From a virus: a DNA stretch of 14,525 nucleotides. A model generated the notes under the pieces. It was not told the DNA's origin. It searched no databases and worked only from the letters and a program-made list of their open reading frames with translations. Position numbers and translations under genes: made by a program. The first letter of the stretch is position 1; each line of letters opens with the position of its first letter. Below, in pieces: positions 1,117 through 11,683 of the stretch. Location of the stretch: the UHGV virus genome UHGV-1637634; one strand, 5' to 3'.

Positions 1117-2211
1117 ATGAGCAGACCGGACTGGGGGGCGTTGCAGCAGGAGTATATTGCTGAATACACCCGCTCCGGTATATCTCCGGTGGCATGGTGT
1201 GAAGCAAGGGGACTGAATTACGCAACAGCCCGTCGTTACATCAAAAAAACTCCGAAAAATGCGCAGACAGAAATGCGCAAAACTGCGCAAAAAAGTGCGC
1301 AGAAAAAATCTGCGCAGACTGCACAAAAGCGGAACGAAAAATCTCAGGAAAAAAAGCCAGTATTCGATGCGGGCCTGAATGAGGGCGACGCGGAGGAATT
1401 TTCGTTCTGTCCCGATGAATTCGGCATTTCTGACCAGCAGGCTAAGTTTGCGATGCTTGTTGCTCAGGGTAAAAAGCCGACAGAGGCGTACCGACTAGCC
1501 GGTTATGAGGGGCAAGGTGCGACAGCTAACAGCAACGCCAGTCGTATGCTTAGAAATGCCAGGGTTTATCGTGCTATCAGCTACTTCCGCAATCAGTACC
1601 AGAAACGCTATACCGCAGACCTGGATTTACTGGTGAGCCAGTTGATGGCCATTGTCCAGGCCGACCCCAATCAGTTGGCACAATTTCGCCGTGTTAACTG
1701 CCGTTATTGCTGGGGCGAGAATCATCTCTACCAGTGGCGTGATATTGCAGAATTCGATAAGGCTGCGGCACAGGCCTCCAGAGATGGTAAACCCGAGCCG
1801 GAATATGGAGGCCTCGGCTTTGTTGATAACGCCATACCCAATCCGGATTGCCCGAAGTGCTGCGGTGAGGGAACGGGACAGCTTTATATGGCTGATACCA
1901 CACTGCTTGATGGGGATGCGCGGCAATTATATGCAGGGTCAAAGCTCGGAAAATACGGTGTTGAGATCCTGCTGGAGGATAAGGCTGCCGCCCGGCGTGA
2001 ATTGTTGCGTTTGTTTTCTGCTGGCGGGGCTTTATGTGCAGATAAGCGGCTACAGGAACTGGAAATTGAACGGCGCAGAATGGAAAACCAGAAGCTGCGC
2101 AAAGAGATCGAAACGGTGGAAGATAATGAACATCCCCAGCCTGTGGCGATCAATATTAATGTGGTTGATGCCAGAGTAAGGAGTGATGAAGATGATCTCT
2201 CCGACGCTTAA
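1117..2211 (+). CDS. terminase small subunit (unusually long, multi-domain)
   Basis: 364 aa, immediately upstream of and overlapping the terminase large subunit gene. Central segment ISDQQAKFAMLVAQGKKPTEAYRLAGYEG...ANSNASRMLRNARVYRAI matches the helix-turn-helix signature of phage small terminases of the SPP1 G1P type. Also has an N-terminal HTH-like segment, a K/Q/A-rich linker, a cysteine cluster (CRYC...CPKCC) and a C-terminal coiled coil with acidic tail. Confidence 0.7.
   Translation: MSRPDWGALQQEYIAEYTRSGISPVAWCEARGLNYATARRYIKKTPKNAQTEMRKTAQKSAQKKSAQTAQKRNEKSQEKKPVFDAGLNEGDAEEFSFCPDEFGISDQQAKFAMLVAQGKKPTEAYRLAGYEGQGATANSNASRMLRNARVYRAISYFRNQYQKRYTADLDLLVSQLMAIVQADPNQLAQFRRVNCRYCWGENHLYQWRDIAEFDKAAAQASRDGKPEPEYGGLGFVDNAIPNPDCPKCCGEGTGQLYMADTTLLDGDARQLYAGSKLGKYGVEILLEDKAAARRELLRLFSAGGALCADKRLQELEIERRRMENQKLRKEIETVEDNEHPQPVAININVVDARVRSDEDDLSDA
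1242..1356 (+). repeat. phased direct repeats inside the terminase small subunit gene: five TGCGCA cores alternating with A-tracts; candidate pac/terminase recognition region
   Basis: TGCGCA occurs at 1260, 1274, 1284, 1296 and 1311 (spacings 14, 10, 12, 15 bp), each followed by an A-rich run, with a TGCACA variant at 1319. Runs of four or more A recur at roughly one helical turn from about 1242 to 1356. The segment encodes the AQK/AQT-rich linker of the protein. Confidence 0.5.
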
Positions 2212-3493
2212 TGTGCCTCAGGCGCGATTTCTTTCAATGCCCCATAAATTTAAAGCCTATATTGCTGGTTTTGGCTCGGGCAAAACATGGGTTGGGTGTG
2301 GCGGCATATGCAAGGGGATTTGGGAGCATCCAGGTATAAATCAGGGATATTTTGCGCCAACGTATCCCCAAATTCGCGATATTTTTTACCCTACAGTGGA
2401 AGAAGTTGCTGCTGACTGGGGATTGAACGTAAAAATTAATGAGGGAAATAAAGAGGTTCACTTTTATTACGGACGCCAGTATCGGGGAACCACTATCTGC
2501 AGATCGATGGAGAAGCCACAAACGATCGTCGGTTTCAAAATTGGTAATGCGTTGGTGGATGAACTGGACATTTTGCCGAAGGAAAAAGCCAGAACGGCGT
2601 GGCGCAAGATAATTGCACGTATGCGTTATAAGATTGATGGACTTCGCAACGGTATTGACGTTACAACCACGCCGGAAGGATTCAAATTTGTCTACGAGCA
2701 GTTTGTTAAAGCCGTGCGTGAAAAAACAGAGCTGGCCTCACTGTATGGTCTGGTGCAGGCATCTACTTTCGATAATGAAAAGAACCTGCCAGCAGATTAC
2801 ATTCCTTCGCTTCTTGAATCATACCCTCCAGAGCTGATTAAAGCCTATCTTCGAGGACAGTTTACTAACCTGACAAGTGGTACTGTTTACCATCAGTTTG
2901 ACCGGAAACTGAATAATTGCGAAGAAGTGGAGCAGCCAGGGGAGCCGATTTATATTGGGATGGATTTTAACGTTGGAAAGATGGCGGGAATCGTCCATGT
3001 GCTGCGTTTGGGGCTTCCATGTGCGGTAACTGAAATCATCAATGCCTACGATACGCCGGATATGATCCGCATCATTAAAGAACGCTTCTGGCTGTATGAT
3101 GGGAATGATTACCGGAAAGTGAGGGAAATTTATATTTATCCAGATGCTTCCGGGGATTCCAGAAAATCAAGTAACGCAAGTACGACGGATATAGCCCAGC
3201 TTAAGCAGGCTGGTTTTAACGTTGTGGTGAACAGCTCGAACCCGCCAGTAAAAGATCGCGTTAACTCAATGAATGCAATGTTCTGCAATGCCAATGGTGA
3301 GCGTCGCTATAAAGTTAATGTGAAGCGTTGCCCGTTATATGCCGAATCTCTGGAGCAACAGGTCTGGGATGAGAAGGGGGAGCCTGATAAAAAATCTGGC
3401 AATGATCACCCGAATGATGCCGGAGGTTATTTCATCGTTAAGCAATTCCCTATTGTCAAACCGACCGGAAGAGTCACATCACTTCGGATTTAA
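2192..3493 (+). CDS. terminase large subunit
   Basis: Walker A-like motif GFGSGKT near the N-terminus; about 433 aa; follows the small subunit gene with overlap. AAGGAG at 2178-2183 is 8 nt upstream of ATG 2192; alternative in-frame starts are GTG 2183 and ATG 2186. Stop TAA at 3491-3493. Confidence 0.85.
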   Translation: MISPTLNVPQARFLSMPHKFKAYIAGFGSGKTWVGCGGICKGIWEHPGINQGYFAPTYPQIRDIFYPTVEEVAADWGLNVKINEGNKEVHFYYGRQYRGTTICRSMEKPQTIVGFKIGNALVDELDILPKEKARTAWRKIIARMRYKIDGLRNGIDVTTTPEGFKFVYEQFVKAVREKTELASLYGLVQASTFDNEKNLPADYIPSLLESYPPELIKAYLRGQFTNLTSGTVYHQFDRKLNNCEEVEQPGEPIYIGMDFNVGKMAGIVHVLRLGLPCAVTEIINAYDTPDMIRIIKERFWLYDGNDYRKVREIYIYPDASGDSRKSSNASTTDIAQLKQAGFNVVVNSSNPPVKDRVNSMNAMFCNANGERRYKVNVKRCPLYAESLEQQVWDEKGEPDKKSGNDHPNDAGGYFIVKQFPIVKPTGRVTSLRI

Positions 3494-10913: not shown

Positions 10914-11375
10914 ATGAGGTTATGGATGTTTATTCTTAATCAGAAAATTATCATCGGTGGAGAACGCTGGTTTACGCCAATGAAGGACTTAAAACCTGTA
11001 GACGGGTTAAAACTGTTGGTGGCAAGCAGCGATAACGATCAGTATCGCTCCCGTAATGCATTAATCCGTCGTCACATTGAGAAAATGGATGCCAGTTTGC
11101 ACGTCGGAACGAAGGAGTTTGATATTTCAAAAGTTTCCGAGGTAGATTCTGTTGATGATTTACTCATTGATAATGCTGCTCGTTATCTGCTGAAAGACTG
11201 GAAAGGGGTTGGTGAACTGGTTAATGGTGCTGAGGTTGCACTGGAATATACGCCAGAACGAGGGATCGCGCTGCTTAAGCAGAATCCAGAGTTGTACTGG
11301 CAGATCCTTGCAGAAGCAGCCAGCATCGCCCAGGGTAAAGAGCAGCAGAAGCAGGATACGATAAAAAAGCCATAG
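10914..11375 (+). CDS. tail assembly chaperone (lambda gpG-like)
   Basis: 153 aa ORF between the major tail and tape measure genes. Ends ...DTIKKP with the A_AAA_AAG slippery heptamer one codon before its TAG stop. Confidence 0.65.
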   Translation: MRLWMFILNQKIIIGGERWFTPMKDLKPVDGLKLLVASSDNDQYRSRNALIRRHIEKMDASLHVGTKEFDISKVSEVDSVDDLLIDNAARYLLKDWKGVGELVNGAEVALEYTPERGIALLKQNPELYWQILAEAASIAQGKEQQKQDTIKKP

Positions 11376-11683
11376 CCGCCCAGCGGTGGTTATCGGAGTT
11401 CGGGGGAGAAAGGGGGGAAAAGGCAAGATGGAAGCGAGAAAAACTCAGGTTGCCACCGATACCGGAACCAGAAATAGACCCGGTGCTTAAGGAATTGTTG
11501 TACGCCTATTCGGTAATATCCCGTGCCCGACGTTATGCTGGAATGACCGGGGTGCCTTTGCCTTTATCTCTGACAGAGATAAATGAATATTTAGCCACTC
11601 ATCCGGTATTGATTGAGCGCGATGAGTTTGAAGCAGTGATCTTTGCACTGGATGACCAGTATTTTCAGGAGCAGTGTGTGTAG
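10914..11683 (+). CDS. tail assembly chaperone frameshift fusion (lambda gpGT-like), made by -1 frameshift at 11363-11369
   Basis: The -1 frame is continuous from the slippery site into the ORF listed as 11450..11683. That ORF would otherwise need a TTG start and has no RBS. A G/GT frameshift pair at this position is conserved among tailed dsDNA phages. Confidence 0.55.
11363..11369 (+). promoter_or_regulatory. programmed -1 ribosomal frameshift slippery heptamer A_AAA_AAG
   Basis: ATA AAA AAG CCA TAG: AAA and AAG are zero-frame codons of the chaperone ORF. The -1 frame (AAA AAA GCC ATA GCC ...) has no stop from 11363 through 11683, which I checked codon by codon up to 11452. A short possible stem CCGC-cca-GCGG begins 7 nt downstream at 11376-11386. 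Confidence 0.6.

Follow-up and report, generated by a model that had tools for sequence, protein, structure and literature searches.

How small terminases choose viral DNA was called "unclear and controversial" in a 2022 review (PMC9611059), and few packaging (pac) sites have been defined, the pac of ES18 being unknown (PMC11260489). The small terminase gene terS in a 14,525-nucleotide stretch of the UHGV virus genome UHGV-1637634 (this whole stretch is referred to as the window) raises the question in a specific form: why does the DNA that encodes a linker of the TerS protein carry a cluster of the hexamer TGCGCA? A preliminary description of the window had taken the cluster for a candidate pac site. 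On the evidence of sequence, the array has the traits expected of a multi-site binding array for a small terminase, which makes it a good pac candidate. We consider it probable that the array at 1260-1325 comprises cognate sites for the N-terminal helix-turn-helix (HTH) domain of its own TerS and forms the recognition part of a headful pac. We class it with a known kind of element, the pac recognition site within terS, which here would have an unusually clear comparative signature. In P22 and SPP1, pac sites likewise lie within or overlap terS (PMC9611059, PMC6316719). No description of this TGCGCA array, or of the cassette proposed below, was found in the literature, which was covered incompletely.

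The TGCGCA array within terS

The open reading frame (ORF) at 1117-2211 on the plus strand encodes 364 amino acids and is annotated terS in phage records that are 99% identical. Its product matched the Pfam family Terminase_2 (PF03592) over residues 122-321 (E = 2.1e-8; 35.3 bits, with a cut-off of 26.1) and PHROG 51, "terminase small subunit" (E = 7e-76). Three parts follow one another on the plus strand: an N-terminal domain (residues 1-44; 1117-1248), a low-complexity linker rich in Lys, Gln and Ala (residues 45-95; 1249-1401), and a conserved core (1402-2211) with a second HTH-like segment of Terminase_2 type, two CxxC pairs and a coiled C-terminus.

Exact TGCGCA was found at 1260, 1274, 1284, 1296 and 1311, with spacings of 14, 10, 12 and 15 bp, which bears out the earlier count of five cores 10-15 bp apart within a small terminase gene. 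The array occupies codons 48-70, starts 143 bp inside the gene and encodes the linker segment NAQTEMRKTAQKSAQKKSAQTAQK. Copy 1 (1260-1265) is read as N-A-Q (aaT GCG CAg), copy 3 (1284-1289) as T-A-Q, and copies 4 (1296-1301) and 5 (1311-1316) as S-A-Q, so that all four share the form xxT GCG CAx. Copy 2 (1274-1279), however, lies in another reading frame and encodes M-R-K (aTG CGC Aaa), a first hint that what is repeated is a DNA word and not a peptide. A degenerate sixth copy (1320-1325) reads TGCACA in the window and TGCGCA in many close relatives, as seen in a haplotype alignment. The extent of about 115 bp given in the preliminary description applies to the surrounding A-rich zone of Lys codons and spacers (1243-1356; periodicity about 12 bp), but not to the cores, which cover just 57 bp, or 66 bp with the sixth copy.

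The cluster is unlikely to have arisen by chance. Elsewhere in the window TGCGCA occurs only five more times, never upstream of 1260, and none of 500 first-order Markov simulations of the window exceeded two copies in a 70-bp segment. A Poisson bound for the array across the whole window is approximately 3e-5, and among non-homopolymer hexamers TGCGCA is the only one to occur at least four times within some 70-bp segment of the window. The cluster is also unique in a 37-kb record of the same phage (L001, which is without the last few kb of the prophage), every other 100-bp stretch of which holds at most one TGCGCA. No second repeat array was seen within 700-2300.

Two other features near the array were considered. 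An inverted repeat (1332-1343/1396-1407) was dropped, as inspection by eye indicated that it is not retained in divergent haplotypes. The sequence A AAA AAG at 1350-1356, in the zero frame (GAA AAA AAG), is a classic -1 slippery heptamer, and a -1 shift there would lead to a stop after 8 further codons and yield an 88-residue protein of HTH and linker. Every E. coli haplotype seen retains the heptamer and other genera do not, which makes programmed frameshifting unlikely.

Selection on the DNA word

If the repeats served only the protein, the hexamer should be no more frequent in relatives than their linker sequences demand. A scan with one genome per species, based on an alignment of the N-terminal domain, yielded 69 loci from Enterobacterales and a few other Gammaproteobacteria, most of which have a cluster of 3-8 TGCGCA starting at nucleotide +137 of the ORF. 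In 50 unique intact relatives from about 50 species, the DNA for residues 41-85 contained 235 TGCGCA, as compared to 25.8 expected when codons were redrawn for the same proteins (500 trials, maximum 40). The density of the word was 34.8 per kb in this DNA versus 2.5 per kb across the remaining ORF. Furthermore, the words occupy all three reading frames, being read 177 times as x-A-Q/H, 47 times as [V/L/M]-R-[T/N/S/K/I] and 11 times as C-A. In 25 sequences of different genera that share the same layout, the information at third codon positions was highest within the words (1.86 bits), lower in the spacers (1.16 bits) and lowest in the adjoining HTH-coding DNA (0.82 bits). The consensus of these sequences is ..CTGCGCAAA.TGCGCAAAaa.cTGCGCAgAA.AaA.TGCGCAcTGCGCA...

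The excess of the word, its use of three frames and its conservation at third positions indicate that a linker repeat acting purely at the protein level is insufficient as an explanation, and that the DNA word is under selection of its own, beyond what the protein needs. The earlier suggestion that one segment serves as both protein linker and DNA element is thus supported. A loss of the repeats at the DNA level in relatives that keep the linker would have spoken against the preliminary interpretation; the opposite was found. Within E. coli (34 unique terS sequences), diversity (pi) was 0.038 in the repeat zone versus 0.100 in the distal linker.

The preliminary description had also proposed helical-repeat phasing and bent DNA, and this part did not hold. 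Over 1236-1362 the AA dinucleotide has a periodicity of 11.5-12 bp, with no power at 10-10.5 bp, and the rotational concentration of the six cores is R = 0.09 at 10.5 bp and 0.81 at 12 bp. In relatives the dominant word spacings are 7, 9, 12 and 14 bp. Helical phasing with an intrinsic bend was therefore rejected. The flanks of the word are A-rich in relatives as well, and the A-richness of the zone appears largely to reflect Lys codons together with this flank. HTH domains reaching successive sites at such spacings would need flexible linkers rather than phasing on one face of the helix.

The array follows the N-terminal domain

Which part of TerS goes with the array? In a model generated by AlphaFold2 from a 16-sequence alignment, residues 6-20, 24-31 and 35-41 form helices, with a pLDDT of about 86 over the domain and low values beyond residue 42. 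The predicted fold is thus one helix followed by a helix-turn-helix, which makes the N-terminal domain, a predicted three-helix HTH, the proposed reader of the repeats. Helix 3 (Y35-Y41, YATARRY; 1219-1239, plus strand) is the predicted recognition helix and contains both R39 (codon at 1231-1233) and R40. A Pfam search with this domain returned no credible family.

Sequence inspection showed the domain and the array together on several distinct C-terminal cores. One is the 364-residue type found in the window; the others are classic Terminase_2 types about 330 residues long and shorter types of about 235 to 260 residues. Similarly, the N-terminal domain alone matched five PHROG families of TerS. 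Conversely, Actinobacillus phage pPE4 has a core of the window type (92% DNA identity from 1411, with the module boundary at about 1411) but a different N-terminal HTH, assigned to Pfam HTH_50. The core therefore appears to be exchangeable relative to the N-terminal cassette.

This second, unrelated type of HTH carries arrays of other words, GTTTCCAC/GTGGAAAC, at the same position in the linker. In pPE4 the linker DNA contains GTTTCCAC twice and then GTGGAAA(C) in inverted orientation; relatives of this type with 56% protein identity and another core contain GTTTCCAC 2-3 times followed by three inverted TGGAAAC. In the loci of this second type (L003 2830-2900; L280-L284) the words are parted by A-runs. 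Inverted copies encode different peptides, so the DNA word appears to be the conserved object in the second family too.

In the reverse direction, IMG/VR was scanned with a DNA pattern of three TGCGCA with short gaps, which yielded at least 120 stretches (121 clusters). Among the matches listed, 73 clusters adjoin an ORF with this N-terminal domain (hidden Markov model E <= 1e-3) and 2 further clusters are family members cut off by the contig end; the rest are mostly three-copy chance matches or tandem repeats in low-complexity genes. The sequence comparisons thus link the array to the predicted HTH. Five IMG/VR contigs among the matches listed have dense TGCGCA arrays of 5-6 copies with no adjoining TerS N-terminal domain (L274 1554-1600, L199 1119-1170, L189 10434-10520, L161 2121-2200 and L257 1892-1950). 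These are apparently non-coding or in unrelated contexts, and they may be sites for other proteins.

Further variants were noted. In cores of the "LLKPQHEQFAQNIAQGM" type, two extra TGCGCA lie 12 bp apart within the HTH-like segment of the core (F-A-Q-N-I-A-Q), at about +296 to +320 of the ORF in L126 and L089, and they occur also in L088 and L097; they could be extra sites or coincidence. In Escherichia phage Rac-SA53 (L002 2912-3940) the gene bears the annotation "gpOterS; fusion of two genes by deletion". Its similarity to the window starts at 1269, within the array, its remaining words are decayed (TTCGCA, TGCGCT, TGCCCA), and LT-IIa toxin genes lie directly upstream. TerS of Escherichia phage phiSTEC801-Stx1a (L153 1501-2295) has a diverged form of the same N-terminal domain with the helix NTARTRIKM, and the domain matches more than 100 records of Stx-converting phages. 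Behind this domain the phiSTEC801-Stx1a gene has three (C/T)GATCAT words spaced by 12 bp, which encode IDHEIDHKTDH, and then two TGCGCAAA words. Each (C/T)GATCAT word holds a Dam GATC site and is reminiscent of P1 pac.

The word co-varies with residue 39

Within the family, the type of word was found to track residue 39 of TerS: all 13 loci with Lys39 carry TGCGAA/TGCGAATTCGCA words, versus TGCGCA in all 58 loci with Arg39. The Arg39 loci (..ARRY(I)K..; n = 58) have a mean of 4.6 TGCGCA and 0.05 TGCGAA/TTCGCA, and the Lys39 loci (..AKRYIK..; n = 13) a mean of 0.15 TGCGCA, 6.0 TGCGAA/TTCGCA and 1.5 full TGCGAATTCGCA palindromes. Four isolated phages are among the latter, namely Klebsiella phage RothC, Yersinia phage vB_YenM_29.18, Providencia phage PSTCR3 and Pasteurella phage Pmp11. 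In Pmp11 TGCGAA occurs approximately 10 times and is coded both as C-E and as A-N. Aeromonas phage phiARM81mr, an ARR type, has seven TGCGCA.

In the alignment, position 39 is Arg in 55 of 55 sequences of the TGCGCA type and Lys in 13 of 13 of the TGCGAA type, and it is the sole column that separates the two word classes. Residues 1-34 are mixed across the classes, one Lys-type sequence, for example, being 94% identical to Arg-type sequences; the switch of word is therefore not merely the marker of a deep clade. These comparisons indicate co-variation between the DNA word and a single residue of the predicted recognition helix. A few Arg-type loci are without arrays, and their ORFs are truncated. 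Very many terS copies in the databases (proteins P0017-P0052; loci L076, L077, L023 and L029) are frameshifted in the A-runs of the array to about 70-90 residues, one truncated form being present on 62 contigs; the cause is either sequencing error in homopolymers or genuine decay of cryptic prophages at these runs.

A proposed packaging mechanism and its alternatives

How might the array act? In the explanation that we favor, TerS would form an oligomer through its core and carry its HTH domains on flexible Lys-rich linkers. Each HTH would read one hexamer with helix 3, Arg39 being the specificity residue, and the 5-6 sites, about 12 bp apart over approximately 65 bp, would be filled cooperatively and so mark the concatemer. 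The complex would then recruit the large subunit, a nuclease/ATPase of Terminase_6 type, leading to a nearby cut and a headful packaging series. The sequence comparisons show the selection on the word, its linkage to the domain and its co-variation with residue 39; what we infer in this scheme is the physical binding, the oligomer geometry, the recruitment of the large terminase (TerL), the position and direction of the cut and the initiation of packaging.

Several points weigh against this explanation. In the pac phages that have been studied best (P22, SPP1/SF6 and Sf6), TerS is a weak DNA binder in vitro and shows little preference for sequence (PMC9611059, PMC4737164), so that base-specific reading would be unusual for a small terminase. 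Among the E. coli sequences, bases in the words are as variable as those in the spacers (pi of 0.039 versus 0.037), a level of divergence that is uninformative. Individual copies prove dispensable in nature, with TGTGCA in place of copy 2 in 25 of about 80 close relatives, TGCGCG in place of copy 4 in others and TGCACA as copy 6 of the window. The loci are phylogenetically related, and their counts are not independent events. Finally, many of the carriers may be defective prophages.

Alternatively, the array could be an autoregulatory operator through which TerS limits transcription or translation of terS-terL, with packaging recognition located elsewhere. The pairing of HTH and sites suits an operator equally well, and SPP1 TerS has been reported to repress its own synthesis by binding to pac (work cited in PMC6316719). 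The defining role of a TerS, however, is pac recognition, and the uniqueness of the cluster in the 37-kb record, along with the lack of a second array within 700-2300, speaks against a separate packaging signal; we consider this alternative unlikely. As the regulatory and packaging sites of SPP1 are the same DNA, the two roles are in any case not exclusive. A reader other than TerS, such as a host factor, the product of an upstream ORF or a restriction-modification or hypermodification enzyme, might be suggested by the GCGC within TGCGCA, by the TAGT-like glycosyltransferase and ParB-like genes directly upstream and by the resemblance of the ORF at 904-1113 to part of a TerS family. This ORF was rejected as the binder, since it is found in just 5 of 75 array-bearing loci, while the arrays track the N-terminal domain and residue 39 of TerS across many hosts and gene contexts. 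Thus, another reader seems quite improbable.

Two further alternatives dispense with a DNA-binding protein altogether. The self-complementary UGCGCA could form hairpins in terS mRNA that tune translation, pausing or stability. The segment 1235-1365 does fold at -32.3 kcal/mol (z = -3.84), and arrays from Aeromonas and Klebsiella gave z = -3.9 and -4.9, but arrays of a palindromic word score in this way by construction, and the Pmp11 array of about 10 direct TGCGAA has no excess structure (z = +1.05). Moreover, it is the word itself that is conserved, not pairing through compensatory change; the word co-varies with a residue in a predicted DNA-binding helix; and 1000-1600 had no match in Rfam. 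Action at the RNA level is accordingly given very little weight. The repeats could also be a by-product of a low-complexity AQK linker generated by recent slippage or duplication, having no function as DNA. Tandem Repeats Finder indeed reported a 36-bp unit in 2.1 copies (80% matched), the linker is of low complexity, and word and spacer bases vary alike within E. coli. This possibility appears scarcely credible in view of the nine-fold excess over synonymous resampling, the three reading frames, the high third-position conservation across genera and the switch of word with residue 39. The inverted words of the second family are likewise impossible to obtain from a peptide repeat.

A portable cassette

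Under the favored explanation, the reader and its address lie side by side in about 210 bp and would therefore travel together as a cassette between TerS cores. We would give an even chance to a broader reading in which this portable cassette has a simple code and is widespread in phages of Enterobacterales, Aeromonas, Pasteurella and Vibrio. It would consist of a TerS HTH of about 45 residues and linker DNA bearing its own sites in several frames. The code in this joint reading would assign TGCGCA to Arg39, TGCGAA or TGCGAATTCGCA to Lys39, and other words to other helices, including the GATC-containing words of Stx phages. The element is common: among 5,426 complete E. coli genomes, 883 contain the 5' 304 bp of this terS. 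Phages of Klebsiella and Yersinia and Stx-converting phages have related cassettes.

If this is true, pac specificity would be predictable from sequence in thousands of prophages and could be re-programmed. It would run counter to the prevailing view of small terminases, based on SPP1, SF6 and P22, which holds that they recognize the shape of DNA and discriminate little between bases. With its short and conserved word, its candidate specificity residue (Arg/Lys39) and its naturally swapped variants, the family makes base-specific recognition by a TerS directly testable. A defined pac would also aid in predicting lateral or generalized transduction by these prophages and in designing packaging signals for phage-based DNA delivery.

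The prophage and its packaging genes

The window is the late region of a Rac-like lambdoid E. coli prophage. Over its first 4 kb it shares 99% identity with ten phage records, e.g. Escherichia phage vB_EcoS-666R9 and Salmonella phage SPF_0923, in which racC, recE/recT, kil, Q, lysis genes and trkG lie upstream of the matching region. The ORF at 63-926 encodes the TAGT-like glycosyltransferase (Pfam TAGT, TET-associated glycosyltransferase, E = 4e-27; PHROG 842, "beta-glucosyl-HMC-alpha-glucosyltransferase", E = 2e-90) and is preceded by the ParB-like gene (L001 19210-20001). These matches, directly ahead of the packaging genes, hint at DNA hypermodification in a Rac-like prophage. The small ORF at 904-1113 (69 residues) matches the middle of another TerS family, PHROG 309 (E = 8e-23). 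It precedes terS only in loci with the window-type core and could encode an accessory protein of packaging or what is left of one.

Downstream of terS, terL (2183-3493, plus strand; annotated start 2192) matched Pfam Terminase_6N (E = 3.7e-33) and Terminase_6C and is followed by a DUF4055 portal, a Mu-F-like protein and then coat and tail genes. The closest phage relatives of TerL are siphoviruses of the Jersey, Kaguna and Dhillon types, which we take to be headful packagers. The gene set terS-terL-portal-MuF, a usual one in headful phages, and these relatives of TerL suggest headful packaging. No useful sequence match was found in the PDB for TerS (best E = 0.15), and none at all for TerL. 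The record ends of related phage entries were rejected as a proxy for packaging ends, since they fall wherever a contig or prophage was arbitrarily delimited. An 11-bp tandem repeat, GGGGGAGAAAG, is present in 2.1 copies at 11402-11423, between a YdaY-like ORF (10914-11375) and the next small ORF, before the tape-measure gene. Signals for tail-chaperone frameshifts are usually found in this region ahead of the tape-measure gene.

Comparison with known packaging sites

The closest likeness in design is to the pac of phage P1, reportedly worked out by Sternberg and by Skorupski. It lies inside the small-subunit gene pacA and consists of repeated near-palindromic hexamers (TGATCA/G) that are read as an array by the packaging protein. 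In P1, two hexamer clusters flank the cut, an IHF site is present, and Dam methylation of GATC exerts control. The terS array is similarly a set of near-palindromic hexamers within a small-subunit gene, but it forms a single cluster, its TGCGCA lacks GATC, and its predicted reader domain is different. GATC-containing words are nevertheless found in the related Stx-phage TerS gene with its three (C/T)GATCAT words.

With SPP1 and SF6 the present TerS would share an N-terminal HTH on a flexible linker of an oligomeric protein (PMC6316719, PMC4737164). In SPP1, direct repeats overlap the 5' part of terS, and pac (pacL-pacC-pacR) is also autoregulatory (PMC6316719, PMC4737164). Recognition in SPP1/SF6 has been attributed to HTHs that bind weakly and non-specifically and select intrinsically bent DNA, and the box repeats of one phage are not conserved in the other (PMC4737164). 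In contrast, the word described here is strongly conserved, co-varies with a helix residue and has no A-tract phasing at 10-10.5 bp. The position differs as well: SPP1 pac covers promoters and the region coding for the DNA-binding domain, whereas the TGCGCA array is located in linker-coding DNA.

P22 offers the precedent of a pac embedded in the terS of a headful lambdoid phage, where wobble recoding has split the DNA role of pac from the protein role (PMC11260489). Unlike the array, P22 pac is one asymmetric 22-bp sequence, and P22 TerS belongs to another family. The 22-bp sequence had no match in the window at up to 3 mismatches.

In the cosB of phage lambda, repeated R-sites next to the small-subunit gene are read by the N-terminal winged HTH of Nu1. 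Several repeated sites and a small-subunit N-terminal HTH as their reader, here a predicted one, are common to both systems. Lambda, however, is a cos system; its large subunit is of the GpA type, its R sites are 16 bp long and lie upstream of the gene, and IHF takes part, whereas the locus described here combines a large subunit of Terminase_6 type with sites inside the small terminase gene itself.

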